From contig CAVSOU010000010.1 of the NCBI GenBank assembly GCA_963729625.1, forward strand, positions 1,328,719 to 1,392,718: DNA of 64,000 bases. Reading direction: 5' to 3'. How positions within the stretch are numbered: position 1 is the first letter of the stretch; the number at the start of each line of letters is the position of its first letter. The position numbers and the translations under genes are program-made. The stretch is from an uncultured bacterium (GTDB lineage: Bacteria; Chloroflexota; UBA5177; JANWHV01). Under the pieces are notes generated by a model. It made no database searches, had not been told where the DNA came from, and was given only the letters and a program-made list of their open reading frames with translations. Below are positions 6,782 through 35,406 of the stretch, one piece after another.

Positions 6782-6843
6782 TCTCTCCTTTGAAACCTGT
6801 TGTCTCTAGTCGCTGCCCGATCGGTCAGCGCCAGCACGCAACT

Positions 6844-7770: not shown

Positions 7771-7794
7771 CCCTGAGCTTGTGTTCGGACAGGC

Positions 7795-8109: not shown

Positions 8110-8151
8110 GTCCTGCTCCATTCCACATGCGAGCGCAGTCAATTGAGCTGA

Positions 8152-10278: not shown

Positions 10279-10284
10279 GGCCGG

Positions 10285-10626: not shown

Positions 10627-10702
10627 TGCCCTCCAGGCCCATGCACTTGGGCTCCATCCACCTGGGTAGAGACCCGCATCACTTGTGCGGCAGCGCTCCG
10701 GG

Positions 10703-12520: not shown

Positions 12521-12641
12521 CCAGGCGATCTCCTTGCAGCTGAAACACTTACCGCAGATACCGCATGCATCGACAAGCGTGGAGGTTGAGCTCGCAGTCA
12601 ACCCCACCGTCCACGAGCGGCAATAGATGGCTCAATTCTTC

Positions 12642-20726: not shown

Positions 20727-20857
20727 GGAGAACGGCAATGCCCGGCGTTCACCCGGATGAGCCGGACTGGTAACACCCGACAAAAGTGGAGCAGTAAAGC
20801 GGTCGGCTTCGCGCTATGCCGTCGTTTGGTACCTTTAGGCCAGAAGGAGTTGGAAGG

Positions 20858-21679: not shown

Positions 21680-21729
21680 GGCCGGCCCAAGTCGGACTCA
21701 TATCCTGATTAGCGAGAGGTGTAGGCGCA

Positions 21730-23433
21730 ATGCAGGAAAATGGCCATCATGCGGTGCTGAGGCAGTTCGTGGCCGACGGGATGCACTACATGTTTGGCAA
21801 CCCGGGCACGGTAGAACAGGGATTTCTGGATGCCTTGAGCGATGTTCCGGAGTGCCGCTACATACTGACGCTCCAGGAGAGTGTGGCGGTCATGGCTGCC
21901 GATGGCTACGCCCGTGCCACGCACCGCCCCACGTTGGTACAGATTCATAGCTCCCCTGGACTCGGCAATGCTATTGGCGCCTTGTACCAGGCAAATCGTG
22001 GCCATTCGCCCCTGGTAGTGATCGGCGGTGACGCGGGCATCAAGTATCAACCGATGGACGCCCAAATGGCAGCGGACCTCGTTGCAATGGCCAGGCCGGT
22101 GACCAAGTGGGCGACAACGGTACTGGAATCCCAGTCGTTACTGCGAGTATTGCGACGGGCGATCAAGATTGCCGCTACCCCGCCGATGGGACCCGTCTAC
22201 ATATGTCTGCCGCAGGATATCATGGACATGCCCGCGTCCGAGCCCGTGTTCCCCACCAGCATCCCGTCTGTGCGCGTTGCGCCCCAGCCAAGCCTGCTGC
22301 AGCAACCGGCGGCCTTTCTGGCCGGGGCGTCTCACCCCATGATCTATGTCGGAGACGGCGTTGCCTATGCCGATGCCCAGGATGAGCTGACACGGCTGGC
22401 CGAGCTTCTTGGCGCCGAGGTCTATGAGGCTGATGCGGGCGAAGTCAACATGAGCTACGACCATCCTCTGTATCAGGGGTCGACAGGCCACATGTTCGGG
22501 TACCAGAGCCTGCCCATCATGCGGCGAGGTGACGTCAATCTCATCTGCGGCACGTATGTGCTGCCAGAGGTGTTCCCGGAGCTTGGCGACATCTTTGCCG
22601 ACGGTTCGGTGGTCATCCATATCGATCAGAATGCGTACGAGGTCGGCAAGAACCATCGCGTTGACTTCGGCTTTGTTGCCGATCCGAAGCTGACTCTCGC
22701 CGCCCTTGCCGATGCCGTGGAGGCAGCGGCCACGGCCGAGCAGAAGGCGGCCGCTCGCGAGCGCCTAGCCCGGATCACGGTGGATAGTGCTGAACGCCGC
22801 GCGAAGGCGCTCGAGTCGGATGTGTCGGTGCGGGATGTCATGCCGCTCCACATGGCTCGCTTCGCCGAGGAGTTGAAGAAAGCGTTGCCGGACGATGCGA
22901 TAATCTTCGATGAAGCCCTGACTAACAGCCCCCCGATTAGCCGCTACGTCCTGCCCGGGCGCACCGGGCAGTACTTCGTCACGCGTGGAGGATCGTTGGG
23001 CGTGGGATTCCCGGGAGCCATCGGCGTGAAGCTAGCGAATCCCCACAGGACCGTAATAGGTTTCAGCGGCGACGGCGGCGCGATGTACACGATCCAGGCA
23101 CTGTGGACTGCTGTTCGTCATAACGTGGATGTCAAGCTCGTGGTCTGCAACAATCGCTCATACCGGCTGCTGCAGCTGAACCTCCAGGCCTACTGGAAGG
23201 AACGAGGCGTCGAGCCTCGCGCGTTTCCGCTCAGCTTCGATCTGTCGCAGCCCGACCTGCGGTTCGATGAGATGGCAAGGTCCATGGGTGCCCAGGGCGT
23301 GCGGGTCGAGAAACCGGGGGAAATCGCCCCAGCCATCGAGAAGATGCTGGCAACGCCTGGCCCGTTTCTGATTGACTTGATTCTGGAGGGGGACACGCAT
23401 CCAGAGTTGATAGGCGTTACTTGCGGCCAGTAA
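21730..23433 (+). CDS. ThDP-dependent enzyme, benzoylformate decarboxylase-like
   Basis: FGNPGTVE, LQE, QIHSSPGLGNA, GDGGAMY...NN. Confidence 0.9.
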   Translation: MQENGHHAVLRQFVADGMHYMFGNPGTVEQGFLDALSDVPECRYILTLQESVAVMAADGYARATHRPTLVQIHSSPGLGNAIGALYQANRGHSPLVVIGGDAGIKYQPMDAQMAADLVAMARPVTKWATTVLESQSLLRVLRRAIKIAATPPMGPVYICLPQDIMDMPASEPVFPTSIPSVRVAPQPSLLQQPAAFLAGASHPMIYVGDGVAYADAQDELTRLAELLGAEVYEADAGEVNMSYDHPLYQGSTGHMFGYQSLPIMRRGDVNLICGTYVLPEVFPELGDIFADGSVVIHIDQNAYEVGKNHRVDFGFVADPKLTLAALADAVEAAATAEQKAAARERLARITVDSAERRAKALESDVSVRDVMPLHMARFAEELKKALPDDAIIFDEALTNSPPISRYVLPGRTGQYFVTRGGSLGVGFPGAIGVKLANPHRTVIGFSGDGGAMYTIQALWTAVRHNVDVKLVVCNNRSYRLLQLNLQAYWKERGVEPRAFPLSFDLSQPDLRFDEMARSMGAQGVRVEKPGEIAPAIEKMLATPGPFLIDLILEGDTHPELIGVTCGQ

Positions 23434-23502
23434 TGGCATAAACGCGCGTGGTAGTCTGCGTTCGTGCTGGGCGAGGATTGAGACAGTGCGGAAAGGAGCG
23501 CG

Positions 23503-24072
23503 ATGAAACTCACCGGGGCCAAGGTTGGCGTGCTCATCGAGGGCGACTTCTATGAGAACGAGATCCTCTATTACCAGCACCGCTTCCCTGAAGAAGGGAT
23601 AGATCTGCACTTCTTGACCAGGCTGTGGGGGCAGCCTTCGCTGACTTTCCTCGGACACGAATATCGAGTGCCCTTTGAGTGCCGCGAGAGCTTCGAAGAC
23701 CTGGATGATCAGGCTTTGCGTAGCTTTTCGGCAATTATCGTGCCGTCGGGCATTGTGGCTGACCGGTTGCGGTATACCGAGGACATCAGTAAGCTGCCAC
23801 CGGCACTCGAATTTCTCAAGCGAGCATTCGCCGAGCAAAGCATCATCAAAGGCATCATTTGCCACGGCCTGTGGCTGGTGGCATCGGCGCCTGAGCTTGT
23901 GCGCGGCCGGCGGCTCGTCGTACACAACAATTTGATCGGCGATGCCAGAAATATGGGAGCCATCTACACGGATCAGGATGTGGTCGTGGATGGCGACCTG
24001 GTGACGGCGCGTACCGGCGGGCATTGCCATCAATTCGCACGCACAATCATCGATATCCTGGCCGCCCGCTAG
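23503..24072 (+). CDS. DJ-1/PfpI family protein
   Basis: FYENE, ICHG, VVVDGDLVTAR. Confidence 0.9.
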   Translation: MKLTGAKVGVLIEGDFYENEILYYQHRFPEEGIDLHFLTRLWGQPSLTFLGHEYRVPFECRESFEDLDDQALRSFSAIIVPSGIVADRLRYTEDISKLPPALEFLKRAFAEQSIIKGIICHGLWLVASAPELVRGRRLVVHNNLIGDARNMGAIYTDQDVVVDGDLVTARTGGHCHQFARTIIDILAAR

Positions 24073-24212
24073 TGGGTCAAGTGCGTTGCTCATGGCCATT
24101 GCCACCGCGCCTGAGACTCCGGCCTTCAGGCCGGAGGGCCTCACCCGCTCGCCCAGCCGTGGCCTTCAGGCGGCATCTGAACGGCGATGAACGTGACAAG
24201 CGACCCACCTAG
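24069..24212. mobile_element. MITE-like element, copy 1
   Basis: Ends CTAGTGGGTC...GACCCACCTAG; closely similar to 39544..39686. Confidence 0.7.
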
Positions 24213-24271
24213 CGCGTCAGCTGTGCCTGCCCAATAGCCCATTACCCTATGCGTAGAGGAGTTGAGCAACA

Positions 24272-24718
24272 ATGGCCGAACCCATCACCCTGGAACAGAT
24301 CAAGAGACTGGTGGCTGCGTGGTATCTGGCGCTGGATCAGCACGACCCTATCGCAAACTGCTACGCGTTGCTCGCCGACCAGGGCCTCAACGTGCAATTC
24401 CCCGACGGCGACATCCGTGACCATGCCGGCTTCAAGAAGTGGTACGACCGGGTCACCAATTTGTTCTTCGACGAGAGTCATGTTGTCCAGAGCGTGGAAG
24501 CCGAAATCAAGGGTGATGCGGCCGACATCAGAGTCGTCGTGGGTTGGCAGGCCAGCTGGTGGGAGGCGCCTGCGGCGAAGAGCAAACGCGTCTCCATGGA
24601 TGCGACGCAGGCATGGACGGTGCGCCGGTCGGCAAAGAATGCCTATGGTCTGGAGATCGTCACCTACAACGCGACCGTTGAGCCTTTCAAGTATGCGCCG
24701 GGATTTGCGCGCCTGTAG
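24272..24718 (+). CDS. NTF2/SnoaL-like protein
   Basis: Size and pattern (FKKWY..V...FFDE.H); GGAG RBS. Confidence 0.75.
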   Translation: MAEPITLEQIKRLVAAWYLALDQHDPIANCYALLADQGLNVQFPDGDIRDHAGFKKWYDRVTNLFFDESHVVQSVEAEIKGDAADIRVVVGWQASWWEAPAAKSKRVSMDATQAWTVRRSAKNAYGLEIVTYNATVEPFKYAPGFARL

Positions 24719-24990
24719 CTCGCCGCCGCTCCTTAGGACCGAACTTGCTACACTGCCCTCATCAGGGCATCCTCACCTTGACCGCATGAGGCTGTTCTTG
24801 ACGGGTTGAAGCGGGTTTAGGAAAGGAAAGGCACGATCGTCTTCTCGTGGTTGAGCTGCACGCAGGCGCGTCCCCGGCTCTTCCGTTGGCCCACACCTCC
24901 TGGCCTTGGTGCCCCGCGCTAGACCTGGAGAACGTCCCCTCGCTCCGTTGTCACGAGTCCGATGTATTGACCACGTATTTGGAGGACGGC

Positions 24991-25482
24991 ATGCCGAAAT
25001 TGACAGAGGCGGGTCTTCAGGAATTCATCCTGGAGTTCTACCGGCAGGCGGACAGTAGTGCTCCCCTGGTCTGGTTCCTTCCCTACATTGAAGACGATTT
25101 CCACATGGTCTGGACGCCCACGTGCGAATTTCGTGGCCAGGTGGGATTCGAGGAGTTCTACCGCAACCTTACTGGAAACCTGTTCGATCGCGTTCACCAG
25201 GTCTCCGATATCAGCATCAAGACTGACGGCGATAAGGCTGAGGTCACCTTCACCATTCACCTGACCGCCAAGGTATGGAGCGCTCCGCTACCAAAAAGCA
25301 TCCACGCCGAGAACTACGCCAACTTCCGCTGGACCGTACGCACATCCGAAAAGACCGGCAATCTGGCCATCATGGACTACTTCCTGACGGGAGTGCGTTT
25401 CCCAGAAGGAAGCATTATTGTCGATGCGGACAAGGTCTTCAAGTACCCGAGCTGGATGCACGGCCCCTGGGGTTTCCCGTAG
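24991..25482 (+). CDS. NTF2/SnoaL-like protein (distant paralog of 24272..24718)
   Basis: GFEEFY......LFDRVH; GGAGG RBS. Confidence 0.7.
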   Translation: MPKLTEAGLQEFILEFYRQADSSAPLVWFLPYIEDDFHMVWTPTCEFRGQVGFEEFYRNLTGNLFDRVHQVSDISIKTDGDKAEVTFTIHLTAKVWSAPLPKSIHAENYANFRWTVRTSEKTGNLAIMDYFLTGVRFPEGSIIVDADKVFKYPSWMHGPWGFP

Positions 25483-25759
25483 ATCGCTGGGGCCACGGTG
25501 AGCGGTACGCAGGCTGCGACCGGCACATGCGCGCCGTGAGAAGTCGCGGCACTGGCAAGGGGCTCCCGGGCCGGTACGGTGCTGCCTGCATGATGTAGGT
25601 GGCCGGAAACGCGCCAGAGGCAGTCGCTCACGGTTACTCGCCACCAGGCCGATACGAGTCGTCGACCGCGCGCGCAGTACGCACGTCTTGATGCGCTCGC
25701 GGGGTTTGGTAACGGGCACAAGGTAACAGGCACGCGCGCCGAGTAAGGAGGCCAATGCT

Positions 25760-26173
25760 GTGACACCTTCCGACAACAGAGCAGTCGTTCAGGCCTGGGC
25801 AGATGCCCTGAGCGCCGGTGATATCGATAGGGCTCTCGTCCACCTCGCACCAGATTACGTCGGTCACTTTTCCGCAATGCCCGAGCCCGTGCAAGGACCC
25901 GAGGGCTTCAAGGGCATGTACATGTACTTCATCAAGCCTGCGTTCCCAGATCAGAAGATTACGATCGAGCGGCAGGTAATCTCAGGCGACAGGATAGCGA
26001 TCCAATTATCGTGGACCGCGACGCACCAGGGCCCGTTTCTGAACACGCCGCCCACCGGAAGACGTGTCGAGGTCCCCGGCACCGGCATCTTCCGTGTAGC
26101 CGGCGGCCAGATCGCCGAGGAGTGGATGCTCGAGGACTTCCTGGGCCTCTATCAACAGATCACTCAAGGCTAG
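25760..26173 (+). CDS. SnoaL-like ester cyclase family protein
   Basis: AFPD, TATHQGPF...PPTGRRV, GQIAEEW. Confidence 0.88.
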   Translation: MTPSDNRAVVQAWADALSAGDIDRALVHLAPDYVGHFSAMPEPVQGPEGFKGMYMYFIKPAFPDQKITIERQVISGDRIAIQLSWTATHQGPFLNTPPTGRRVEVPGTGIFRVAGGQIAEEWMLEDFLGLYQQITQG

Positions 26174-26191
26174 TGCTGCAGGGAGGGCGTC

Positions 26192-26611
26192 ATGCCAGAA
26201 CGGGAAAACGCGGCTATACTGGAACGCTACTACGAAGAAGTGGTGAACCAGGGGAAGCTTGACGTGGTCGACGACGTTATCGCGCCCGACTACGTATCGC
26301 ATCATAACGACCCAGCCCACCTCCCCCCCGGGCCTCCTGGAGTCAAGGCGTTTGTCTCCATCACCCGAGCAGGGTTTCCCGACCTCCACCTTACGGTTGA
26401 TCAAGTCTTTGCTGAGGGCGACCAGGCAGCCTCGATGTGGACAATGGAGGGTACCCACACGGGCGAGTGGTTCGGCGCTCCCGCGACAGGCAAGCATGCG
26501 AAGTGGTCAGGCATCGTGGTATCGCGCTTTGAGAACGGCAAAATCGCTGAGGACTGGTACAACTTCGATCAAGTATCGTTGCTGCAGCAGCTCGGCATCA
26601 TCCCGAGTTAG
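26192..26611 (+). CDS. SnoaL-like ester cyclase family protein
   Basis: GFPDL, EGD, GTHTGEW.G.PATGK, GKIAEDW. Confidence 0.9.
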   Translation: MPERENAAILERYYEEVVNQGKLDVVDDVIAPDYVSHHNDPAHLPPGPPGVKAFVSITRAGFPDLHLTVDQVFAEGDQAASMWTMEGTHTGEWFGAPATGKHAKWSGIVVSRFENGKIAEDWYNFDQVSLLQQLGIIPS

Positions 26612-26628
26612 CCTTCTGGTCAGGAACT

Positions 26629-26689
26629 CGCAACGGCGGTGAAATGCAGGCCTCGCCGCAAGGCGAGGCGCTCGTTCCATCGCCGCTGC
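26629..26689. other. Intergenic stem-loop (terminator or mRNA stabiliser)
   Basis: Perfect GCCTCGCC-GCAA-GGCGAGGC hairpin (26650-26669) inside an outer imperfect stem; no U tract. Confidence 0.45.
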
Positions 26690-26899
26690 GGACCCACGTA
26701 ACGCACAAGCGCGCTCGGATGTCTGGCCTGCGCCTGGCGCACCGGCCGGCTGACCTTGGTGAGATCGTTTGTTTGTTCTGCGGGAACATGTTGTGCCGGG
26801 TGAGCCACCTGCGATCCCGGCAGAACGCACGATGGAGAACCGCACGCCCGATCCAGTGACACGCGCTATTGCAAGGAGTGGCAGAAAGATGGGATTTCG

Positions 26900-27691
26900 A
26901 TGAATGCCAAGGGACAGCGTGAGCCAAACAGATTGAAGCGGAACCTCATGGCCGGCAAACCGTGCATCGGCACGGTGGTGACCCTCAACAACGTCGCGGT
27001 GGCCGAAATGCTCGCCCGCGTCGGCTACGACTGGCTGTGGTTCGAGACGGAACACACCTCGCTTGAGCTGGAAAGCTTGCAGGCCATGCTTGCCGCCACA
27101 AACGGCTCTGACGTGAGCACGGTGATTCGCGTGCCGTGGAACGACAAGACCATGATCAAGCGCGCGCTCGACCTGGGTCCGGACGCGCTCATCATTCCGG
27201 AGGTCAACACCCGCGCAGAAGCCGAGCAAGCCGTCCGTGCGATGAAGTACCCACCGTGGGGCGAGCGGGGCGCCGGTATGGCTCGCGCGCAGTCGTACGG
27301 CGGTCAGCTTGTGGAATACCTCGAGATGGCCAACGACGAAGTGATGGTGATTCCGATGATCGAGCATATCCAGGCCGTAGAGAACATCGATGAGATTCTC
27401 GCGGTCAAGGGAGTGGACTCGGTGATGGTCGGCGCGCTCGATCTCTCTGGGAGCCTGGGCCTGCTGGGCCAGACGGGCCACCCGGATGTCGAAGGTGCTG
27501 TGCAGCGGGTTTTGGCGGCGTGCAAGCGAGCAGGAATACCGTGTGGCGCCGTCGCCATGACGCCTGAACAGGCCAACGCACGGATCGAGCAGGGCTTCAC
27601 CAACATCTCGTTGGGCATGGACGTGGTCTATCTCCGCGGCTCCGCGAAGGCTGCCGTGGAACAGGTGAAGCGCCCTGCCACCGCCAGCTAG
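26900..27691 (+). CDS. HpcH/HpaI class II pyruvate aldolase
   Basis: ETEH, IRVP, IKRALDLG, YPPWGERG, MIE, GALDL. Confidence 0.92.
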   Translation: MNAKGQREPNRLKRNLMAGKPCIGTVVTLNNVAVAEMLARVGYDWLWFETEHTSLELESLQAMLAATNGSDVSTVIRVPWNDKTMIKRALDLGPDALIIPEVNTRAEAEQAVRAMKYPPWGERGAGMARAQSYGGQLVEYLEMANDEVMVIPMIEHIQAVENIDEILAVKGVDSVMVGALDLSGSLGLLGQTGHPDVEGAVQRVLAACKRAGIPCGAVAMTPEQANARIEQGFTNISLGMDVVYLRGSAKAAVEQVKRPATAS

Positions 27692-27784: not shown

Positions 27785-28396
27785 TCAACCCTGGTGGTCG
27801 CCGGGCACGTGATCGAGCATCCGGCGCGCTTCGTCGTACTGCGCCATGGTGTCCACGTCGATCGCTATCCTGGCGTCTGGCGCCGGTACCGTGGCCACCA
27901 GGTCCGGGCGCTCGAGTAGCAGCGAGCGCACTCCACGGTCGCCAGTGATGGACATGACCAGAGGCCAGACTGTGCGATCGAGGAGCAGCGGTGCGCCGCT
28001 GTATCCGCCATACTCGGTGGCGATCAAGGGCTGACGTGTCTCCACATGCCGGGCCTCGAGTAACCCGAACAGGTCACTGGTGACGAAGGGCTGATCGCCA
28101 ATGACTAGTATGACGGCCGTGACGGCCGGTCTCAGGCAGGCAAGCCCAAGCCGGAGGGAGCTGCTCAGTCCCTCGACATGCTGCGGATTGATCACCACGT
28201 CGATACCGGCCAGGTCAACCGCGCGCGAAATCTCGTCAGCCGCGTGCCCCAACACCACCACCAATTGCGCGGGACCATACTGTCGCAGCGCCGCCAGAGG
28301 CCACTCCAGCAGAGGCCGCCCACCCAGCGGTAGCAGCTGCTTTGGTTGACCAAGCCGGCGCGAGGCGCCGGCCGCCAACACGAGGCCGGCTATCAC
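27785..28396 (-). CDS. MocA-like molybdenum cofactor cytidylyltransferase
   Basis: LAAGASRRLGQPKQLL, GDQP, GDRG, DVDT; overlaps the xdhC-like stop. Confidence 0.85.
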   Translation of the reverse strand: MIAGLVLAAGASRRLGQPKQLLPLGGRPLLEWPLAALRQYGPAQLVVVLGHAADEISRAVDLAGIDVVINPQHVEGLSSSLRLGLACLRPAVTAVILVIGDQPFVTSDLFGLLEARHVETRQPLIATEYGGYSGAPLLLDRTVWPLVMSITGDRGVRSLLLERPDLVATVPAPDARIAIDVDTMAQYDEARRMLDHVPGDHQG

Positions 28397-29499
28397 GAGC
28401 GTGTGCCGGCAAGCGCGCTCAGGGGGCCGCCAACCCTGCCGTGCCGCGTTGCCACGATCTCTGCCAGGATGCTCAGCGCAATCTCCTCCGGCGTGTCTGC
28501 CCCGATGTCCAGGCCGATCGGGCCGCTCAGACGTTGCAGATCCCGATCGCTGAACCCCAGGGCCTGCAGGCGCTCGCGGCGCTGCGCGTGCGTCCGGCGG
28601 CTGCCAATCACGCCAACATAGGCAGCCGAACTGCTCAAGAGCACCGGCAGCAATGGCTCCTCGAACTTGGGGTCATGCGTCAATACGGCCACACTGGTGG
28701 TAGGACCAATCGGCCGTCCGATGAGCGCTTCATGCGGCCAGGCGACGATGATCTCGGCAGCATGTGGAAAGCGCTCCCGCGTGGCAAAAGCCGACCTGGC
28801 GTCGATCACAATAACGCGGTAGCCGATCAAGCTCGCCATCGACGCCAGGGCAATCGAGACATGGCCGGCGCCGATGATAACAAGCGTGGCTGGTGGCACG
28901 TGCGACTCGACGAAGAGTTCCACCATCTGCTCGCCGTCCGGTGCATCACAGCCGAGCACACCGGAGTCCAGAGGATAGCGGCGCGTGCGAGAGCGTGACA
29001 TGCTTAGGGCTCCCCGTGCGTCCTCTTCAACACGCGCATCGAGTTGACCAAGGCCCAGTGAACCCTGCTTTGAGCCATCCTGGAAGATCAGCATCTTTGC
29101 TCCAAGAGTTGCGGGAGCGCCGATCACCGTGACCTCGACCACCGGCTCCTGTGCTCGAATTGCTTGTGCCAGGCTGCAATAGTGCATCGTCGACAGGCGT
29201 TCGATGGACACACGCATGGCGCCGCCACACGCCAGACCGATCTCGAAGGCCATATCGCCGGTGAAGCCATACTCCACCACTCTCGGCGTTCCGCTCTCGA
29301 TCACCTGCAGTGCGTGCTCGAAGACGTCGGCCTCGACACAGCCGCCGCTGACGGATCCCACGAATTCCCGCTCGGGCGTCATCGCCATCTTGGCGCCAAC
29401 ACCCCGAGGAGTGGACCCTTCCACCGATACCACGGTCGCCAGCGCGACCTGCTTGCCCTGTTGGTGCCACAGGTCGATCTGATCCAGAAGCTCCCGCAT
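28393..29499 (-). CDS. xdhC: XdhC/CoxI Moco insertion chaperone
   Basis: GSTPRGVGA, GSVSGGCVE, GLACGG, GAGHV, IGSRR, PIGLDIGA.TPEEIA. Confidence 0.9.
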   Translation of the reverse strand: MRELLDQIDLWHQQGKQVALATVVSVEGSTPRGVGAKMAMTPEREFVGSVSGGCVEADVFEHALQVIESGTPRVVEYGFTGDMAFEIGLACGGAMRVSIERLSTMHYCSLAQAIRAQEPVVEVTVIGAPATLGAKMLIFQDGSKQGSLGLGQLDARVEEDARGALSMSRSRTRRYPLDSGVLGCDAPDGEQMVELFVESHVPPATLVIIGAGHVSIALASMASLIGYRVIVIDARSAFATRERFPHAAEIIVAWPHEALIGRPIGPTTSVAVLTHDPKFEEPLLPVLLSSSAAYVGVIGSRRTHAQRRERLQALGFSDRDLQRLSGPIGLDIGADTPEEIALSILAEIVATRHGRVGGPLSALAGTRS

Positions 29500-29742
29500 C
29501 TGACTGCCCCAGGGATACTGCGGGGCCTGCTCATGCGGCCCCATACAGGATTATTCTAGCCGGTCCAACAGGAAGGTCGAAGATGTGTCCTGGCGATGCG
29601 TCGTCGTGATAGGCCAGGTTGACTTCTGGTACTGTCAATTGCCCTCGCGCCGCACTTGCTATCTCACTGGCTTCCGAACTGCTACCATTTATCTTAGGAC
29701 AGCCTCGCGCTGAGCAGAATCGTGAGAGGGTGGTTGCGAAGA

Positions 29743-30522
29743 ATGGGCAAGAAGGTTCTGGTACTCGCCTCCAATATTGGCTTGTGGGCCGAGGAATTGC
29801 AGGCTCCGTGGGACGCGCTCAACAAGGCGGGCTTTGACCTGACGCTGGCTACAGAGCAGGGGAAGACGCCGCTATCCTTGGCACTCAGTGAGGATCCGGA
29901 GTTTGTGGATCCGGTCCAGAAGTACCATGTGAACCCTCCAGAAGTCGTGGAGAGGGTCAAAGAGATCTACGCAACCGGCGAGTGGGACAACCCGATCACT
30001 ATCGCGTCCGCCAACATGGACGACTATGATGCGATTGTCGTCGTCGGAGGGCCCGGGTCACCGCTGGATCTGACTGGAAACGCGAAAGTCCATCGCCTGC
30101 TCGAGAAAGCATTTACGGACAGCAAGACCATCGGGGCTCTCTGCTATGCCGTGGGTGCGCTCGTGTGGGCACGGAACCCCTCCGACTGGAACAAGAGCAT
30201 CATCTACGGAAAGCAGATAGTTGCCCATCCCAAAGAGTGGGATTTCACAGGCCCCCTTCCCTACCCGCTCTATGGAGCGACCCCCGACAATCCGGGCACC
30301 GATCTGGTCACGCCCGGGTTTGTCTATCCGCTCAGCCCCATTGTCGTAGATGCCGTAGGGCCAAGCGGGAAAGTTCATTCCGACCCGACCGCCAATCGCG
30401 AGCATCCACAGGTGATGTATGACCCGCCTTTTGTCACCGCGCTGTCAGTCGAGTCGTCAATCGCCTTTGGTGAGAAGCTGGTCGAAGTTCTTTCGGCCAA
30501 GCTCGCCGGGGTGAGCGCCTGA
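29743..30522 (+). CDS. DJ-1/PfpI/Hsp31-like protein (paralog of 20858..21679)
   Basis: GLWAEEL, VGGPGS, ALCYAV. Confidence 0.85.
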   Translation: MGKKVLVLASNIGLWAEELQAPWDALNKAGFDLTLATEQGKTPLSLALSEDPEFVDPVQKYHVNPPEVVERVKEIYATGEWDNPITIASANMDDYDAIVVVGGPGSPLDLTGNAKVHRLLEKAFTDSKTIGALCYAVGALVWARNPSDWNKSIIYGKQIVAHPKEWDFTGPLPYPLYGATPDNPGTDLVTPGFVYPLSPIVVDAVGPSGKVHSDPTANREHPQVMYDPPFVTALSVESSIAFGEKLVEVLSAKLAGVSA

Positions 30523-30690
30523 GACACAGACCACGGGGGAACGCAGGGCGAGGCTTTGGTGAATCGCCTACCGCTCCCGAACGCTGTTGATCGCGCTCGT
30601 CTTGGCTGTCACAGGTCGTGTCCCAGGTAGGGGTACGCCCTGTCTTCTGGATGAGCCCTTAAGCATCTTGGTCCTATGGGAGTAAAGACG

Positions 30691-31038
30691 ATGGCACTCG
30701 ATACGCCAGGCTGGAAGTTCTTTGAGAAGCACCTGCAGTTCTTCATTGATAAGGACGTCGACGGCTTGCTTGCCAGCGACTATCACGACGACGCCATGTG
30801 CATATCCTACGACTTCGCAGTCAAGGGCAAGGAAGGCCTCAAGAGCCTGTTCACCGGTTACCTCGAGATGGTTGGCGACATCGCGCTCAGATCCACGGAT
30901 CATTGGCGCGAGACCGAAGACTCTATCCTCATCGAGGCCACAATGGACACCTCGCGCGCCGGAGAGCGGAAAGTCTACGACATCTTCATGATGAAGGACG
31001 GCAAGATCTCGCATCACTTCACCGGCGTACGAGCGTAG
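30691..31038 (+). CDS. NTF2/SnoaL-like protein
   Basis: DKDVDGLL..DY.DDA; KDGKISHHF. Confidence 0.8.
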   Translation: MALDTPGWKFFEKHLQFFIDKDVDGLLASDYHDDAMCISYDFAVKGKEGLKSLFTGYLEMVGDIALRSTDHWRETEDSILIEATMDTSRAGERKVYDIFMMKDGKISHHFTGVRA

Positions 31039-31132
31039 AAGCACTCGTATGTCGCACAGCAGCATTGGAGCCCGAGGAAGGCCCACCGGCTAGTAGTGCG
31101 CAGAACTGGTTTCTGGCGAGAAGGGGGAGACC

Positions 31133-34030
31133 TTGCGGATTTCGCTCACAGTCAACGGGCAGCCGTATCGAGCGGAGGTCGAGCCGAGACTGCCGCTTGT
31201 CGACTTGCTGCGTGACACGCTTGGTTTGACGGGCACGAAGAACGGTTGCGGCACGGGTGAGTGTGGTGCATGCACCGTTCTGCTCAACCACCGGTCGGTC
31301 AAGAGCTGCCTGTTGCTCGCCGCACAGGTGGACGGTGCCGAAATCACGACGATAGAGGGATTGGCCACGCGCGATCAGCTCAATCCAATCCAGCAGGCAT
31401 TCTGGGAGCAGTTCGCGGTTCAGGATGGATATGCTACGCCTGGTGCGGTGCTCGCGGCAACGGACCTGCTCGAACACAATCCGGCGCCGACCGAACGAGA
31501 GATCCGGGGCTGGCTCGATGGCTCGCTCGATCGAATTACCGGTTATCAGAACGTAGTGACGGCAATCAGTGCCGCCGCTGGAGTATTGCAAGGTACAGCA
31601 CCCTCCCCCGATGGAGCTGCCCCTTCTCCGATTGTAGGCGCGTCAATCAAGACCAAGGAAGCGCCGGCGATGCTGCGCGGTGAAACACGCTATGTTGCCG
31701 ACATTACACTGCCCGGCATGGTGCACGCTGCGATTCTTCGCAGTACGGTGCCACATGCTCGGCTCAAGCATGTCGACACGTCGGCTGCCAGTACGATGCC
31801 CGGCGTCGTGGGGGTGTATACCGGCGAGGACACGGCGGACATCATGCCGCTGCCTGTTATCTGGGTACCGCAGGATGTGGAAACCCACTTCCCGCCTCAC
31901 CCATCGGGCATGGTACCCGGCTCCCAGCTGGTTCTTGCGAGGGAGCGAGTACGATTCGTGGGTGATCCCATCGCGGTAGCGGTTGCGGAAACCCGACAGC
32001 AGGCCGTTGACGCTCTCGACAAGATCGTGGTCGATTATGAGCCATTGCCGTTCGTACTCGATGCCGAGGAAGCGCTCAAGGATGGCGCACCACAGCTGCA
32101 CGATACGGTGCCTAACAACCTTGTGTTCCGCGCTTCATACGGAGACAAGGCGCAGACGGAACAGGCTATCGCGGACGCCGAGGTCGTCGTGCGGCAGCGC
32201 ATCCGCAGCCAGCGAATGATCGCCAACACTATCGAGACGCGCGGGGCAATCGGCAGCTACGACCAGACGACCGGCGACTACACGCTGTGGACCAACGTGC
32301 AGCCGCTGTATCCGGTACGCCTGCTCATCTCCCTGTATGTGCTCGGTATCCCGTACAACAAGCTTCGCGTTATCGCCCCCGCAATCGGCGGCAGCAACGG
32401 CTCGAAGGGCTACCTGTTCGCCGACGGGCCGCTCGTGCTCTGGCTGTCGAAGAAGATCGGCAAACCGGTCAAGTGGATCGACACACGCGAGGGCATTGCC
32501 CAATCCACGCCACATGGTCGCGACCATGTTGACGATGTCACGCTTGCCGGTACGAAGGACGGCAGAATCACAGCGCTCCACTGCTCGGGCTACAGCAACA
32601 TCGGTGCGTATCCGGTGATAAACGCCCCCGGTCAGCCGCGCACGCTGATTGGGAAGAGCATAACAGGCGCCTATGCAATCGAGCGCCCCTATTACGAAGT
32701 CGCAGTGGTCATGACGAACACGGTGCAGGTCGGCGCCCTGCGCGGCTCCGGCAGGGCCGAGGCCATCTACATGATCGAGCGCATGGTCGACATCTACGCG
32801 CGCGAAATCGGCATGGACCCCGCCGAAGTCCGCCGCAAGAATATGGTGCAGCCGGATCAGCTTCCCTATGACAACAAGCTGGGCTGGCTTTATGACTCAG
32901 GCGACTACCCTGCGGCGTTGTCCAGGGCGCTGGAGGCGGTCGATTATGCCCACCGCGCGGAACGAAAGGCCGAAGCGCGCGGGCGTGGCAAGAGGCTGGG
33001 CGTGGGAATCGGCTCTTACGTCGCGGTCGCGGGTGTGGGCCCGTCGGCCAAGATGGGCAAGGAAGGGCTGGTAAGTGGTACGTGGGGTAGCGCTCATATC
33101 GGCGTTCAGCCAACCGGCGAGGTGGTTGTGACCACGGGCGCTCAACCCCATGGACAGGCCCACGAGACCACGCTGGCACAGATCGCCGGTGCCGAGCTCG
33201 GCGTCCCTGTCGACAGGATTCGGGTCCGTCACTCGGACACGGAAGGGCCACTCCTCTATGGCCAGGGAAGCTATGGCAGTCGAACGCTCTCCGTCGAGGG
33301 CGCAGCTGTCCACCTCGCGGCGCAGAAGATCAAGGACAAGGCTCGGCGACTCGCGGCCCATCTCTTCAAAGCAAATGTCGACGATATCATCTACGACGGG
33401 GACGCAGGCAAGGTCTTCCTGAAGTTCGCGCCAGACCAGGCGGTGATGCCGCTCCAACAGGTTGCGTTCGTGGCTTGGCTTGCCTGGGATCTGCCGGAAG
33501 GCATGGATCCCGTGCTGGAAGCACTCGCGTATTTCAATCCACCCGAGTTCAACTACCCATTCGGGACACACGTGGCCGAAGTTGAAGTCGACGAGGACAC
33601 CGGCGAGGTTAGCCTGGTGCGCTATGTCGCGGTCGACGACTTCGGCACCGTCGTGAACCCCGGCGTTGTGGATGGCCAGACGCACGGCAATATCGCGCTG
33701 GGCGTAGGGCAGGCACTATTCGAAGAGGCTCTGTACGGTGCAGATGGGCAGCTCGTGGCGGGCGACTTCTCCGCGTATGCCATTCCTCGAGCGTCGCAGC
33801 TGCCAAGCTTCGAGTTGCACCGCACGGTCACGCCTACGCCGAACAATCCGTTGGGGGCGAAAGGGGCAGGCGACGTCAGCAATCCGCCCGTCGCTCCCGC
33901 GGTTGTCAATGCCGTTTGCGATGCGCTGAGCGACCTGGGCATCCGACACATCGAAACGCCGCTGACTCCCGAAAAGGTTTGGCGGGCGATGCAGGCGGCT
34001 ACAGAACGTAGTGGGGCGGTGATTGCATGA
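31133..34030 (+). CDS. Xanthine dehydrogenase/CoxL-family molybdoprotein with fused [2Fe-2S] subunit (S+L fusion), atypical motifs
   Basis: GCGTGECGAC..SC; YVADI..PGM; ALRGSGR; GQAHET; GSYGSR; GAKGAGD; TTG start with GGGGAG RBS. Confidence 0.9.
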   Translation: MRISLTVNGQPYRAEVEPRLPLVDLLRDTLGLTGTKNGCGTGECGACTVLLNHRSVKSCLLLAAQVDGAEITTIEGLATRDQLNPIQQAFWEQFAVQDGYATPGAVLAATDLLEHNPAPTEREIRGWLDGSLDRITGYQNVVTAISAAAGVLQGTAPSPDGAAPSPIVGASIKTKEAPAMLRGETRYVADITLPGMVHAAILRSTVPHARLKHVDTSAASTMPGVVGVYTGEDTADIMPLPVIWVPQDVETHFPPHPSGMVPGSQLVLARERVRFVGDPIAVAVAETRQQAVDALDKIVVDYEPLPFVLDAEEALKDGAPQLHDTVPNNLVFRASYGDKAQTEQAIADAEVVVRQRIRSQRMIANTIETRGAIGSYDQTTGDYTLWTNVQPLYPVRLLISLYVLGIPYNKLRVIAPAIGGSNGSKGYLFADGPLVLWLSKKIGKPVKWIDTREGIAQSTPHGRDHVDDVTLAGTKDGRITALHCSGYSNIGAYPVINAPGQPRTLIGKSITGAYAIERPYYEVAVVMTNTVQVGALRGSGRAEAIYMIERMVDIYAREIGMDPAEVRRKNMVQPDQLPYDNKLGWLYDSGDYPAALSRALEAVDYAHRAERKAEARGRGKRLGVGIGSYVAVAGVGPSAKMGKEGLVSGTWGSAHIGVQPTGEVVVTTGAQPHGQAHETTLAQIAGAELGVPVDRIRVRHSDTEGPLLYGQGSYGSRTLSVEGAAVHLAAQKIKDKARRLAAHLFKANVDDIIYDGDAGKVFLKFAPDQAVMPLQQVAFVAWLAWDLPEGMDPVLEALAYFNPPEFNYPFGTHVAEVEVDEDTGEVSLVRYVAVDDFGTVVNPGVVDGQTHGNIALGVGQALFEEALYGADGQLVAGDFSAYAIPRASQLPSFELHRTVTPTPNNPLGAKGAGDVSNPPVAPAVVNAVCDALSDLGIRHIETPLTPEKVWRAMQAATERSGAVIA

Positions 34031-34899
34031 TTCCCGCGCAGTTTGAGTATGCGACGGCAACCAGCGTGAACGAAGCTGTGCGGTATCTTGAGGCGCATCC
34101 AGGCGCACGTGCGCTCGCTGGAGGCACGGGGCTGATCCCCGCCCTCTCACGCCGCCGCCTGACCGCAAGCGCCTTGGTCGATCTTCAACACATACCCGGA
34201 CTTGCGGCCATGACGCCGCTGGACACGGGTGGCGTGCGCATAGGGGCGCTTGCCACGCTCGCGGCGATTGTCGACAGGGAGGGTATGCGGGCAGCCTATC
34301 CGGTGTTGGCGGAAGCAATCGCTTCTGCCGCCGATCCACAGATTCGCAACCGCGCGACGCTCGGTGGCAGCCTTGTCCTCGACCACCGGGGAGGAGATGT
34401 CGCGGCTGCGCTTTTGGCTTTGGGCGCGTCTATAAACGTCACTGGGCCTGCCGGCGATCGGGTGGTCGCCATCGACAGGCTCCTCAGCGATCTCGGAGCT
34501 GCTCGTCTTGCCCCAGCCGAGATCGTGACGTCGATCGATCTTCCCGGTGACGCCTCGGGCACTGCGTATGAGAAGATCCGCAATCCTGCCAGCGGCTTTG
34601 CCATTTGCGGCATAGCTGCGTTGATCCGGCTTGGTGGGGAAGGCGCGGTGAGCCAGTGCCGCGTGGCGGTGACCGGAGCGACCGCTGCTGTGACCCGTCT
34701 GCTGTTGCTGGAGGAAAGCCTCACGGGACAAGCTGCTTCTCTGGCGACGATTGCCGGCAGCGCGCTTGCGGCGCAAGTGGCAACCCTCGCTTTCGCCGGC
34801 GACTGGCCGGCGTCTGCAGAGTTCCGAGCGCATTTGACTCGAGTACTGGCAGTGCGCGCCGTGCGACGCGCGGCAGAGCGCGCCGGATGGCGTGCGTGA
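34027..34899 (+). CDS. FAD-binding medium subunit (CoxM/XdhB-like)
   Basis: LAGGTGLIP, PQIRNRATLGG; ATGA overlap with upstream gene. Confidence 0.9.
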   Translation: MIPAQFEYATATSVNEAVRYLEAHPGARALAGGTGLIPALSRRRLTASALVDLQHIPGLAAMTPLDTGGVRIGALATLAAIVDREGMRAAYPVLAEAIASAADPQIRNRATLGGSLVLDHRGGDVAAALLALGASINVTGPAGDRVVAIDRLLSDLGAARLAPAEIVTSIDLPGDASGTAYEKIRNPASGFAICGIAALIRLGGEGAVSQCRVAVTGATAAVTRLLLLEESLTGQAASLATIAGSALAAQVATLAFAGDWPASAEFRAHLTRVLAVRAVRRAAERAGWRA

Positions 34900-35013: not shown

Positions 35014-35406
35014 GTGAAGAACGTACCTGACACAGCGCTCGGGCGCATGTATCGTGAGCACATCCAACATATCCTGGACAAGGACATCGAGTCACTGCTG
35101 GACCAGTATACCGATGATGCCCTGCTGATCAGCAGCTTCACCCGAAAGCCCCTCATCTACAAGGGTCGTGCGGAGATCCGCGAACATATGCAGGGTATTC
35201 TTGGCATCCAGGGCCTGGAAACCGACATCGCATTTTGGGCGGAGACAGAGAGTCCGCAGACTCTCATGATTGTGGAGGAGATCACCATGCAAACTGCTGA
35301 CGGGGAAGCACGCATGCGCTTCGCCGACAGCTGGGTGCTGCGTGAAGGGCGTATAGCCATACACTTTGCTGGGATGACCCAGTATCCCGACGGCTCGGTG
35401 GCCTAG
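35014..35406 (+). CDS. NTF2/SnoaL-like protein (paralog of 30691..31038)
   Basis: DKDIESLLDQYTDDA; REGRIAIHF. Confidence 0.78.
   Translation: MKNVPDTALGRMYREHIQHILDKDIESLLDQYTDDALLISSFTRKPLIYKGRAEIREHMQGILGIQGLETDIAFWAETESPQTLMIVEEITMQTADGEARMRFADSWVLREGRIAIHFAGMTQYPDGSVA

Follow-up and report, generated by a model that had tools for sequence, protein, structure and literature searches.

The window, a 64,000-nucleotide stretch of an uncultured Chloroflexota genome, contains a fused CoxS-CoxL-type gene (P0001; Table 1) whose single predicted chain joins a small subunit (Fer2 and Fer2_2) to a large subunit (hammerhead, MoCoBD_1 and MoCoBD_2) and matches the Pfam families Fer2, Fer2_2, Ald_Xan_dh_C, MoCoBD_1 and MoCoBD_2. 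The large-subunit domains score as those of the XDH family do (PF01315, 92.6 bits; PF02738, 210.5 bits; PF20256, 252.4 bits), and PF00111 (31.3 bits), together with four Cys, marks an N-terminal plant-ferredoxin-type [2Fe-2S] domain. P0001 is thus a predicted CoxSML-type molybdenum hydroxylase of the xanthine-oxidase family. Its stop overlaps by 4 nt the start of the gene for P0002, which has the profile and motifs of a FAD subunit (PF00941, 142.7 bits; PF03450, 53.2 bits; AGGTGL at 31 and TLGGS at 111).

Table 1. Genes and sequence features of the window, with coordinates and strand
Feature	Coordinates	Strand	Remarks
Co-conserved block	6353..12607	-	
RsbW-like kinase	6353-6781	-	
SpoIIE/PP2C phosphatase	6844-7770	-	Pfam annotation only, not among synteny matches
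Two STAS proteins	7795-8142, 10285-10626	-	
GH13 isoamylase-like	8152-10278	-	
GlcNAc-2-epimerase-fold protein	10703-12607	-	
Upstream conserved block	20816..27691	+	
ThiJ-like protein	20816-21679	+	287 aa
ThDP enzyme near benzoylformate decarboxylase	21730-23433	+	
PfpI protein	23503-24072	+	189 aa
Four SnoaL-like proteins	24272-26611	+	
HpcH/HpaI aldolase	26900-27691	+	
MobA-like NTP transferase / MocA-like	27785..28396	-	Best MocA (MCD synthesis) match in own genome
XdhC-family Moco insertion factor	28393..29544	-	Transcribed away from operon
DJ-1/PfpI (ThiJ_like) protein	29722..30522	+	Likely true start, ATG near 29743
NTF2/SnoaL_2-like protein	30676..31038	+	120 aa; conserved beside enzyme genes, 38-83%
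Fused CoxS-CoxL-type gene P0001	31133..34030	+	965 aa; TTG start; no internal stop
Codons C39, C44, C47, C59, N-terminal plant-type [2Fe-2S] (Fe/S II) ligands	31247..31309	+	Intact
Codons D98, A101, D133, I135, Moco-proximal [2Fe-2S] Cys positions	31424..31537	+	Zero Cys
GGSNG loop, residues 419-423	32387..32401	+	Replaces family GGGFG
GAKGAGD, residues 908-914	33854..33874	+	Asp914 replaces catalytic Glu
FAD subunit P0002 (CoxM-like)	34027..34899	+	290 aa; FAD_binding_5 + CO_deh_flav_C
SnoaL_2 protein	35014..35406	+	130 aa; always inside core module
Tandem-SnoaL protein	35412-36272	+	
GMC oxidoreductase	36232-37833	+	
VOC/glyoxalase-fold protein	37843-38289	+	50-80% conserved in clade loci

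The distal cluster is represented by GCGTGECGAC at residue 38 and KSC at 57. The Fer2_2 fold is likewise recognizable (PF01799, 74.8 bits), but the four-Cys pattern of the proximal cluster (QCGxCxxG ... CxC) is missing: the corresponding segments read QDGYATPG at residue 97 (nt 31421) and GSLDRITGY at 130 (nt 31520), and in HMMER alignments the solved chains 4zoh_C, 5y6q_A and 1n5w_A have the Cys of QCGYCTPG and GNLCRCTGY where P0001 has D98, A101, D133 and I135. The scaffold around the lost site (Q97, G99, T102-P103-G104, G130, L132, R134 and G137-Y138) is conserved. In the large subunit, alignment to CoxL (8uem_A) and CutL (1ffu_B) shows GGSNG at the place of GGGFG, the Moco-binding loop, and D914 at that of the Glu in GAKGIGE or GAKGVAE, the catalytic Glu of GxKGxGE. 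A first-pass annotation had noted the absence of the four proximal Cys, the intact first cluster motif, GGSNG and GAKGAGD, all of which these alignments bear out, as well as an intact reading frame with xdhC, a MocA-like gene and the FAD subunit retained, which the ORF and Pfam annotation confirm.

The best solved relative of the large subunit is the aerobic [MoCu] CO dehydrogenase CoxSML (PDB 8UEM, 1N5W/1ZXI, 1FFU; 8uem_A, E 1.4e-166), which shares with P0001 the domain set, the FAD subunit, XdhC-type maturation and membership of an MCD-type family. It differs in having separate subunits, proximal ligands, the catalytic Glu and GGGFG, and its active-site loop AYxCSFR (8uem/1ffu) is ALRGSGR in P0001, without the Cu-binding Cys. 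Form I CO dehydrogenase was rejected as an assignment (TIGR02416, 604.8 bits, below the cut-off of 991.15; Cu-loop absent). The small-subunit part finds its best solved match in 4zoh_C (E 2.2e-50), from the three-subunit, aldehyde-oxidising archaeal glyceraldehyde oxidoreductase / Sulfolobus tokodaii oxidoreductase (PDB 4ZOH; NCBIfam NF041018-20, the second-best NCBIfam match), which, unlike P0001, keeps QCGYCTPG and NLCRCTGY. Glyceraldehyde dehydrogenase was rejected as well, since all three subunit models (NF041018/19/20, alpha/beta/gamma) score below cut-off (561.6 vs 790, 182.1 vs 350 and 197.1 vs 290). The subunit fusion is no novelty, being found already in the aldehyde oxidoreductase of Desulfovibrio gigas (AOR or MOP; PDB 1SIJ, 1VLB), an MCD enzyme with small and large subunit in one chain, whose alignment to P0001 (1sij) begins at residue 5; unlike P0001, however, it works without a FAD subunit and has both of its [2Fe-2S] clusters.

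A clade without proximal-cluster cysteines

The proximal Cys are lost (at least three of four) in 85 of the 120 best database matches, the remainder being two fused proteins that keep the Cys and 33 proteins without the small-subunit part. In the tree the Cys-less proteins group together with SH-like support of 98, as a single clade of 84 rows and one fragment (85 in all), with named members from four phyla, cultured Spirosomataceae among them. Random decay of a single dying copy, for which nothing speaks except the missing Cys themselves, is therefore rejected and retains only a vanishing probability: the same state recurs in these 85 proteins, several phyla and cultured isolates included, the reading frame is intact, synteny is conserved and dN/dS is about 0.1. 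The first-pass annotation had likewise argued against random decay, proposing that close homologues be tested for kept Cys, and that argument holds.

What has replaced the Cys is far from uniform. Across 81 full-length clade proteins we counted 29 different residue quartets at the former ligand positions, with N, D or T at the first, mostly S or A at the second, S, D, T, C, A, G, V or E at the third and E, I, V or S at the fourth; both Asp at the lost site of P0001 are lineage-specific. Because the replacements vary to this extent and no conserved ligand set is apparent, another metal site, as first suggested, is unlikely. The distal-cluster Cys (CCCC), by comparison, are present in 80 of the 81, one member (P0047) lacking these too. 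The F422 column is N, Q or L in most of the clade.

The sister of this clade in the tree is a 32-row clade whose uncharacterised members are CoxL-like proteins of an 'Asp-type' (e.g., P0087-P0122; 56-62% identity), with examples in Chroococcidiopsis, Scytonema, Mastigocoleus (L002) and Bryobacteraceae (L007). They share with P0001 the GAKGAGD(V)S motif with its Asp and an HFPPHP insertion, but keep GG[GAS][FY]G where P0001 has GGSNG, are mostly unfused and have no DJ-1-like neighbour; ten fixed substitutions (e.g., C242V, Y258S and G676S) set the two clades apart. Asp stands in place of the catalytic Glu in 32/32 sister-clade proteins, and those members checked (P0087 and P0088; loci L002, L007 and L111) keep all eight Cys. 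By this phylogenetic reasoning the change from Glu to Asp, common to a sister clade with all its Cys, is older than the loss of the cluster, and the supposed link between the two finds no support. Of the altered residues whose conservation among homologues the first-pass annotation proposed to check, the Asp of the GD is conserved, whereas the D/A/D/I quartet as such is not.

Outside the family these changes are rare. Among 149 representatives from outside P0001's own 50%-identity cluster, Glu occupies the catalytic column in 97% and Phe the GGGFG column in 98%; Asp at the catalytic column occurs in none of the 149, and all five Asp seen belong to P0001's family. Seven of seven outgroup representatives with a homologous fused small-subunit part keep the four proximal Cys. 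Judged from these alignments, the motif changes in P0001 exceed chance.

Purifying selection and the molybdenum site

As the first-pass annotation had proposed, we estimated dN/dS, which between the window's P0001 and its counterpart at locus L112 is 0.11 for the whole gene, 0.12 for the cluster-less Fer2_2 and about 0.1 in each domain except the linker, which is saturated. Mean pairwise identity among the 81 clade members is 59.6% in Fer2, 60.0% in Fer2_2 and 64-70% in the large-subunit domains, and the clade retains 112 of 136 family-conserved columns. Its specific losses are few (the proximal Cys, R174, D177, G420, F422, G676 and G712); Q97, R134, R537, G674, R717 and G908/G913 do not vary at all, and Y714-G715-S716, K910 and D914 hardly vary. 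P0001 is accordingly a predicted functional member of its clade, under purifying selection.

With regard to cofactor supply, the XdhC encoded beside P0001 is the only one found in its own genome, and the neighbouring MocA-like protein scores 132.9-133.2 bits, short of the curated cut-off (186.45). That genome, 87% complete, contains one MoCoBD_1 gene (P0001), one Fer2_2 and one FAD_binding_5, plus MoaC; neither a second XDH-family gene nor a second Fer2_2 protein was found in it, and another client of XdhC and MocA could lie in the unassembled portion. Of the loci compared, the window alone has xdhC and mocA next to the enzyme genes; neither was found within 10 kb at L113, L001, L115 or L131.

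These observations bear on whether P0001 binds molybdenum cofactor at all. The changes at GGGFG, G676 and the catalytic Glu might also reflect an impaired Moco site, and P0001 might be a pseudoenzyme that neither binds nor uses Moco and whose role is instead to scaffold or bind the products of neighbouring island genes or to act as a sensor for them. The alteration of G676, which belongs to the GQGH motif, and the decay of the electron chain described below would fit, as would the tight linkage to small, highly conserved SnoaL and DJ-1 proteins as possible partners. Nevertheless, we consider a pseudoenzyme improbable, given the columns retained and the large-subunit domains being the best conserved part, an Asp914 that is highly conserved and common to a sister clade with all cofactor motifs, and adjacent xdhC and MocA-like genes for which P0001 is the only client found in its own genome. 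From the retained cofactor motifs and by comparison with relatives we infer that Moco would still be bound, probably as MCD supplied by the XdhC and MocA-like proteins encoded alongside, with the helical Fer2_2 domain staying as a scaffold against the pterin and the N-terminal [2Fe-2S] kept. The two adjacent genes, the presence of MoaC and the finding of no other XDH-family gene in the genome point indirectly to bound MCD with a sulfido ligand.

The FAD subunit and the electron chain

Electrons in the canonical enzyme pass from MCD through the two CoxS [2Fe-2S] clusters to FAD in CoxM (bioRxiv 10.1101/2024.01.09.574806); a second source places the redox centres about 12 A apart, with the pterin mediating transfer, and describes Mo(V) of D. 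gigas AOR as magnetically coupled to the proximal cluster (PMC12316806).

A FAD subunit is present in 9/9 other Cys-less loci, but its evolution is roughly twice as rapid as that in canonical relatives: at 60-65% large-subunit identity, FAD-subunit identity is 28% for Cys-less pairs (n=14) vs 53% for canonical ones (n=166), at 80-90% it is 40% (n=4) vs 68% (n=429), and at 90-100% it is 65% (n=6) vs 88% (n=96). The comparison of the window with L112 (large subunit 84%, FAD subunit 65%) falls inside the canonical range. FAD motifs are kept in the window, L112 and L113, and L114 scores likewise by Pfam; in the Cytophagales-type branch the AGGxxL motif has become TGDQxY (L115, L117, L118 and L131) or is deleted (L001), FAD_binding_5 reaches 62-92 bits vs 129-164 in the window's branch, and the distal Cys are kept. 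The electron chain thus looks dispensable in the Cys-less clade, and the changed electron path suspected in the first-pass annotation gains support from the fast evolution of this subunit and the motif loss in one branch. Decay is uneven, however, since the distal Cys persist in nearly all members and the motifs of P0002 are normal, which argues against a purely vestigial chain.

The chain might still work, either because non-Cys ligands (Asp, Asn, Ser or Glu) hold a redox centre at the proximal site or because electrons pass from the pterin directly to the distal cluster and thence to FAD, which would leave P0001 an ordinary dehydrogenase. The conserved distal Cys, the ubiquitous FAD subunit and its motifs in the window's branch are consistent with this, as are the two Asp of P0001, Asp ligation of Fe-S clusters being known in other proteins. 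Many of the 29 quartets, however, include A, I, V or G, residues unable to ligate metal, the FAD subunit is fast-evolving, with AGGxxL gone from one branch, and the genome yielded no additional Fer2_2 protein to act in trans. Moreover, if the distance from Mo to the distal cluster in P0001 resembles that in relatives, skipping one centre would about double the canonical spacing of about 12 A given in PMC12316806. On balance we regard a working chain as slightly less probable than a pseudoenzyme. Less probable again is a complex of two enzymes, one being a separate module of distal [2Fe-2S] and FAD (e.g., an NAD(P)H-dependent reductase) and the other a Mo domain with chemistry of its own: the conserved distal Cys and the intact FAD motifs in the window's branch agree with it, but the Cytophagales-type branch lost the FAD motif though it kept the distal Cys, constraint on the FAD subunit is relaxed clade-wide, and no gene stands out as that of an acceptor or donor.

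We favor, with moderate confidence, the reading that P0001 is a Moco enzyme whose flavin has been disconnected by a clade-wide loss of the proximal cluster, its molybdenum turning over without the wire. Since its lineage lost the cluster that carries electrons from molybdenum, its mode of action is probably not that of its known relatives. As the proximal cluster is the sole stepping stone from Mo to the distal cluster and FAD, the internal wire would be cut, and the Mo centre would have to turn over without it, either by completing the reaction within the active site, where Mo would alternate between Mo(VI) and Mo(IV) in a redox-neutral or ping-pong scheme, or by handing electrons straight to an outside acceptor, for example O2, with the FAD subunit and distal cluster becoming largely structural.

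A conserved island and a possible reaction

The genes around P0001 form an island of about 17 genes co-conserved across loci, including three DJ-1/PfpI proteins, the ThDP decarboxylase-like enzyme, the aldolase and the VOC protein of Table 1, many SnoaL proteins and partner-switching regulators. The DJ-1-like protein upstream of P0001 is 60-87% identical in 9/9 other Cys-less loci (L112-L118, L131 and L001), its gene adjoins the enzyme genes in all nine, and its nucleophile-elbow Cys (GALCYAVG) is invariant in 7/7 aligned sequences, whereas no such gene lies beside the enzyme in the Cys-keeping relatives L002, L007, L111, L003 and L082. Of 121 Spirosomataceae-family genomes, the same four carry both the fused and the DJ-1-like gene, within about 3 kb, a co-occurrence within one kin family that may reflect one or few acquisition events. 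The SnoaL_2 protein directly downstream of P0002 is the island's most conserved protein across loci (69-86%), and in Persicitalea (L001) the counterparts of the minus-strand block come straight after the enzyme genes. A minus-strand ORF at 30568-31086 is a shadow of the NTF2/SnoaL_2-like gene. Going by Pfam and NCBIfam names, the island probably encodes stress-regulated, carbonyl-handling enzymes, and within it the substrate of P0001 would most likely be an aldehyde or 2-oxoaldehyde.

Precedents for molybdenum turnover without an internal wire exist outside the family: plant sulfite oxidase passes electrons straight to O2, and acetylene hydratase and pyrogallol-phloroglucinol transhydroxylase are Mo/W enzymes that likewise need none, the centre being reoxidised directly or undergoing no net redox change. 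These belong to the sulfite oxidase and DMSO reductase families, without sequence relation to P0001, and offer a functional analogy only. To our knowledge no example of wire-free turnover is known from the xanthine-oxidase family, and our literature searches found none.

One specific and speculative form of wire-less turnover, which we think unlikely, is that P0001 is a Moco-dependent Cannizzaro-type isomerase or dismutase of reactive 2-oxoaldehydes, in effect a 'wire-less' molybdenum hydroxylase. Its Mo=S/Mo-OH centre would take a hydride from the aldehyde carbon and return it, in the same active site, either to the carbonyl next to it or to another molecule of substrate, and the enzyme would act beside the three DJ-1/PfpI proteins and the VOC protein in a stress island under partner-switching control. 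If this were true, P0001 would be the first xanthine-oxidase-family enzyme with acceptor-free catalysis.

Cys ligands, active-site motifs and family assignment of the fused protein

By fold and domain order, the fused protein (P0001) is clearly a CoxSML-type member of the xanthine-oxidase family: Pfam places Fer2, Fer2_2, Ald_Xan_dh_C, MoCoBD_1 and MoCoBD_2 domains along it, and FAD_binding_5 and CO_deh_flav_C domains in its FAD subunit (P0002). P0001 nevertheless lacks three hallmarks of the family, namely the Cys ligands of the proximal cluster, the catalytic Glu and GGGFG, and scores below every curated NCBIfam cut-off. It is not a CO dehydrogenase, its loop reading ALRGSGR without the Cu-binding Cys, nor is it a recognised glyceraldehyde dehydrogenase. 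In this family the helical-domain cluster (Fe/S I) is the one adjoining Moco. In HMMER alignments, the four Cys of QCGYCTPG and NLCRCTGY in small subunits of solved structure (4zoh_C, 5y6q_A, 1n5w_A) face D98, A101, D133 and I135 of P0001; against CoxL (8uem_A) and CutL (1ffu_B), GGSNG takes the place of GGGFG, and D914 that of the Glu in GAKGIGE or GAKGVAE. The motif positions reported in the first-pass annotation are borne out by the motif table, and are listed below with the other features. Mo(V) is reported to couple to proximal Fe/S I (PMC12316806).

Coordinates of the fused gene, its motifs and other features of the window
Feature	Window position (nt)	Strand	Residue of P0001	Remarks
Fused small and large subunit ORF (P0001)	31133-34030	+		intact, 965 codons, TTG start
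FAD-subunit ORF (P0002)	34027-34899	+		290 codons; overlaps stop of fused ORF by four bases
XdhC	28393-29544	-		opposite strand to fused gene, just upstream of it (Pfam/NCBIfam)
MobA-like/MocA-like transferase	27785-28396	-		opposite strand to fused gene, just upstream of it
GCGTGECGAC			38	KSC at 57
QDGYATPG	31421		97	
GSLDRITGY	31520		130	
GGSNG			419	
GAKGAGD			908	
NTF2-like gene, 120 aa	30676-31038	+		83% identical in L112, a metagenome locus
Rejected ORF, 172 aa	30568-31086	-		shadow of the NTF2-like gene
DJ-1/PfpI-superfamily genes (three, all different)	20816-21679; 23503-24072; 29722-30522			in one island
SnoaL/NTF2-like genes	between 24272 and 36272			at least eight
Partner-switching block	6353-12607	-		20 kb from the Mo-enzyme genes
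SpoIIE/PP2C phosphatase	6844-7770	-		inside the block by Pfam; not among synteny matches
FecR and right-handed beta-helix protein	798-5285	+		very large, 1495 aa
FecR and right-handed beta-helix protein	13759-17112	+		very large, 1117 aa
FecR-only protein	41681-43054	-		
CHASE2 adenylate/guanylate cyclase	39687-41600	-		near FecR proteins
cNMP-binding protein	12755-13753	-		near FecR proteins

Distribution and ancestry of the Cys loss

Of 7999 candidates scored in a word-indexed search, 4286 were relatives, and the best 120 of these were inspected. Among these, 85 had the site visible with at least three of the four Cys missing (P0003-P0085, P0092 and P0100; 56-90% identical), two fused proteins (P0087 and P0088) retained all four, and the remaining 33, all either fragments or large subunits without fusion, lacked a small-subunit part. 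Loss shared by 85 of the best 120 relatives, in one clade, is not the decay of a single copy; the first-pass annotation had likewise argued against random decay. In an exhaustive HMMER search of 1.84 billion representatives, the whole group fell into one 50%-identity cluster (representative P0064, 60% identical), and the next match was only 42% identical. Of two further candidate loci, L063 ('FIVD') proved to be a tblastn mapping artefact with canonical QCGYCTPG/NLCRCTGY behind an insertion, and L179 ('AA--') was left out of the Cys-less counts.

Across 81 full-length Cys-less proteins, P0001 counted, the four former ligand positions hold 29 different quartets: N (48), D (28) or T (5) at the first; S (52), A (15) and others at the second; S (37), D (15), T (10), C (7), A (4), G (4), V (2) or E (2) at the third; and E (32), I (23), V (15), S (8) and others at the fourth. 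Such variability makes a new metal site at the old cluster position, an option that the first-pass annotation had offered, unlikely. The scaffold round the lost ligands (Q97, G99, T102-P103-G104, G130, L132, R134 and G137-Y138) is at least 90% conserved in an alignment of 88 rows, seven of them Cys-keeping sequences. Ligands of the distal cluster read CCCC in 80 of the 81 proteins, and this strict retention argues that the distal cluster still matters, for folding at least. The exception, P0047, sits on a long branch of the tree and has D, T, C and S at positions 39, 44, 47 and 59; judged by these residues, it would carry no Fe-S cluster whatever. The opposite decay was seen at a metagenome locus (L121:5969-6440) encoding a related Asp-type enzyme, 46-47% identical, with GGSYG and a separate small subunit in which three of four distal-cluster Cys are gone and proximal QCGYCTP and LCRCTGY are retained, which suggests an independent loss of the distal cluster.

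In a comparison alignment of 155 sequences (six from the P0001 family and 149 outgroup representatives), the catalytic column has E in 146, Q in 4 and D in 5. All five Asp come from the P0001 family, and the Asp-type subfamily, the sole group with Asp at this position among the sequences compared, is uncharacterised as a whole. Among the 149 outgroup representatives, Glu occupies the catalytic column in 97% and Phe of GGGFG is present in 98%; the Cys pairs are retained in 7/7 of those having a homologous fused small-subunit part.

In a FastTree phylogeny of the large-subunit part (residues 170-955; 124 rows including six outgroups, with fragments below 780 aa and P0092, P0095 and P0100 removed), all 84 Cys-less rows and the fragment P0086 form one clade with an SH-like support of 98, a FastTree value that is less reliable than the support of a careful tree search. 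The sister clade comprises 32 rows of Asp-type proteins, with the two fused, Cys-keeping ones among them, and P0102, with Glu at the catalytic position, is basal. Besides fusion and Cys loss, ten fixed substitutions relative to the sister mark the Cys-less clade, C242V, Y258S, P360Q and G676S among them. Members of the sister clade (e.g., P0087-P0122) have GAKGAGD for GxKGxGE, a conserved HFPPHP(Y/S)G insertion and Cys242. Because the Cys-less clade is nested beside this Asp-type clade, the Glu-to-Asp change is, on the tree, older than the cluster loss. The first-pass annotation had linked the two changes, a link that is not supported: Asp also occupies the catalytic position where small subunits retain all eight Cys (P0087 and P0088; loci L002, L007 and L111).

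Constraint on the Moco site and divergence of the FAD subunit

Mean pairwise identity among the 81 proteins is 59.6% in Fer2, 60.0% in Fer2_2, 24% in the linker (residues 151-170) and 64-70% in the large-subunit domains. A dN/dS check of the window gene against L112 (82% identical) gave Nei-Gojobori ratios of about 0.1 (whole gene 0.11, Fer2 0.13, Fer2_2 0.12, large part 0.10), which are rough since dS is near 1; dS of the linker was saturated and yielded no value. The Fer2_2 domain is thus maintained without its cluster, and its role is probably a structural one against the pterin.

In the Cys-less clade, 112 of the 136 family-conserved columns (at least 85% in outgroups) stay at or above 80%. 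Clade-specific losses comprise the Cys columns, R174 and D177 (in the RxED stretch at the large-subunit start), G420 and F422 (GGGFG), G676 (GQGH) and G712, and the changes common to the Cys-less and sister clades include D431, G454, S701, D914 and S916. Invariant are R537, G538, G540, E549, G674, T679, R717, G908 and G913, and nearly invariant are Y714-G715-S716, K910 and D914, all of which we take to belong to the family's Moco-contact motifs. The source genome of the window (5.4 Mb, 87% complete) contains one MoCoBD_1 match (P0001), one Fer2_2, one FAD_binding_5 and one XdhC (adjacent), together with MoaC; its best MocA-like match adjoins the fused gene and scores 132.9 bits, short of the curated cut-off. 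XdhC and MocA serve the xanthine-oxidase family only, and since P0001 is the sole family gene found in this genome, 13% of which is unassembled, the simplest reading is that P0001 still receives MCD, a form of Moco.

In the Cys-less clade, the FAD subunit has changed faster than in canonical relatives. Compared at equal large-subunit identity across loci with adjacent genes (28 Cys-less and 7750 canonical pairs), FAD-subunit identity was 28.3% (n=14) in Cys-less versus 52.6% (n=166) in canonical pairs at 60-65%, 38.7% (n=2) versus 63.7% (n=505) at 70-80%, 40.2% (n=4) versus 68.0% (n=429) at 80-90%, and 65.2% (n=6) versus 87.7% (n=96) at 90-100%, although the pairs are not independent, and no more than three or four lineages stand behind the eight Cys-less loci. 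In the window, L112 and L113 (both of the window's branch), the FAD pyrophosphate motif AGGxxL is retained; it reads FTGDQAY/H in L115, L117, L118 and L131, and is deleted in Persicitalea (L001). Pfam FAD_binding_5 scores 142.7 bits in the window and 128.6, 153.7 and 164.0 bits in the others of its branch, versus 62.5-91.6 bits in the other branch. Given this fast change, the AGGxxL loss and the low scores in one branch, the electron chain looks dispensable to varying degrees.

Canonical enzymes pass electrons from MCD to FAD via both [2Fe-2S] clusters of the small subunit (bioRxiv 10.1101/2024.01.09.574806), with redox centres about 12 A apart and the pterin mediating transfer (PMC12316806). 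Without the first cluster, the remaining gap would be roughly double 12 A. Tunnelling falls with distance, and a doubled gap would be too far for catalytic rates; our reading is therefore that the enzyme has lost its connection to the flavin. P0001 would then be a separated Moco catalyst, turning over either through a self-contained reaction or through direct reoxidation of the reduced Mo by an external acceptor.

The gene island and its implications

Comparison of the window ORFs with nine Cys-less loci (tblastn and blastp) defined a core module of a 130-aa SnoaL_2 protein (69-86% across these loci), the fused gene followed by the FAD subunit, a 120-aa NTF2-like protein, and a 266-aa DJ-1/ThiJ-like protein (60-87%, in 9/9 other Cys-less loci). 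Further conserved are a 287-aa ThiJ-like protein, a 189-aa PfpI protein, several SnoaL proteins, a ThDP enzyme nearest benzoylformate decarboxylase, an HpcH/HpaI aldolase, a VOC protein, a GlcNAc-2-epimerase-fold protein, a GH13 isoamylase-like protein, two STAS proteins and an RsbW-like kinase. The 130-aa SnoaL protein matches SnoaL_2/NTF2 clusters only (Atlas search), and the DJ-1-like gene, judged by its homologues, probably starts some seven codons into the listed GTG ORF (window 29722-29745), at an ATG giving MGKKVLVLASN. In Persicitalea, a single strand carries all conserved island genes within about 18 kb; the window has them in three separate blocks and contains xdhC, mocA, a tandem-SnoaL gene and a GMC oxidoreductase besides. 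The window's partner-switching set (the RsbW-like kinase, the SpoIIE/PP2C phosphatase and both STAS proteins) is interleaved with the GH13 isoamylase-like and GlcNAc-2-epimerase-fold genes, and all genes of that block except the phosphatase share the conservation of the Mo-enzyme island, in Persicitalea as well as in metagenome loci.

The DJ-1-like neighbour is absent at the Cys-keeping relatives L002, L007, L111, L003 and L082. The fused gene (59-61%) occurs in 4/121 sampled genomes of Persicitalea's family, the same four carrying the DJ-1-like gene as well (63-69%, at a distance of about 0.5-3 kb), and in Persicitalea alone among 151 genomes sampled from its order. Among 201 genomes of the window's phylum, a tally that takes in the unpublished genomes G038 and G145 although nothing concluded here depends on them, only the window's own has the fused gene; the best other match is unfused (59%), and four same-genus genomes gave unfused matches of at most 48%. 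By name, database sources of the Cys-less clade are Bacteroidota, Chloroflexota, Acidobacteriota and Actinomycetota, with Runella zeae, Spirosoma gilvum, Persicitalea jodogahamensis, Nibrella saemangeumensis and a Dyadobacter strain as cultured carriers. This patchy spread suggests an accessory island moving between lineages.

The concentration of DJ-1/PfpI and SnoaL/NTF2 genes is unusual and without a known pathway, and the island is undescribed as far as literature searches reach: the accessible text of the literature searched, including PMC13653126 and PMC10223205, contained no description of it. An Rfam scan of the whole 64-kb window at gathering thresholds returned no Moco riboswitch (0 matches), and a scan of 27500-38600 found three promoter-like sites versus 2.3 expected and two terminator-like sites versus 6.1 expected. 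A search of sequencing runs for the window gave no RNA run, and the best DNA run shares 0.34 of the window's words. The family names of the neighbours (glyoxalase-III-like DJ-1/PfpI proteins, a VOC protein, a 2-oxoacid decarboxylase-like ThDP enzyme and an aldehyde-releasing aldolase) point to an aldehyde or 2-oxoaldehyde as substrate, and those of the partner-switching genes point to stress control of the island.

Descriptions of the xanthine-oxidase family give it a fixed wire running from Moco through the proximal and distal [2Fe-2S] clusters to FAD or another exit. To our knowledge, its variants add or drop the last station of this wire, never the first, and the accessible text of the full-text literature searched, outside which most subscription journals lie and which is thus not proof, made no mention of a member without the proximal cluster. 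A conserved and selected clade without the first station directly raises the question of what recycles the centre of a molybdenum hydroxylase once the relay is gone, and provides a natural experiment on what the Fer2_2 domain does besides holding iron. As the clade occurs in harmless, cultured bacteria of soil and freshwater, the question is experimentally approachable, and the island may define a new stress or reactive-carbonyl pathway.
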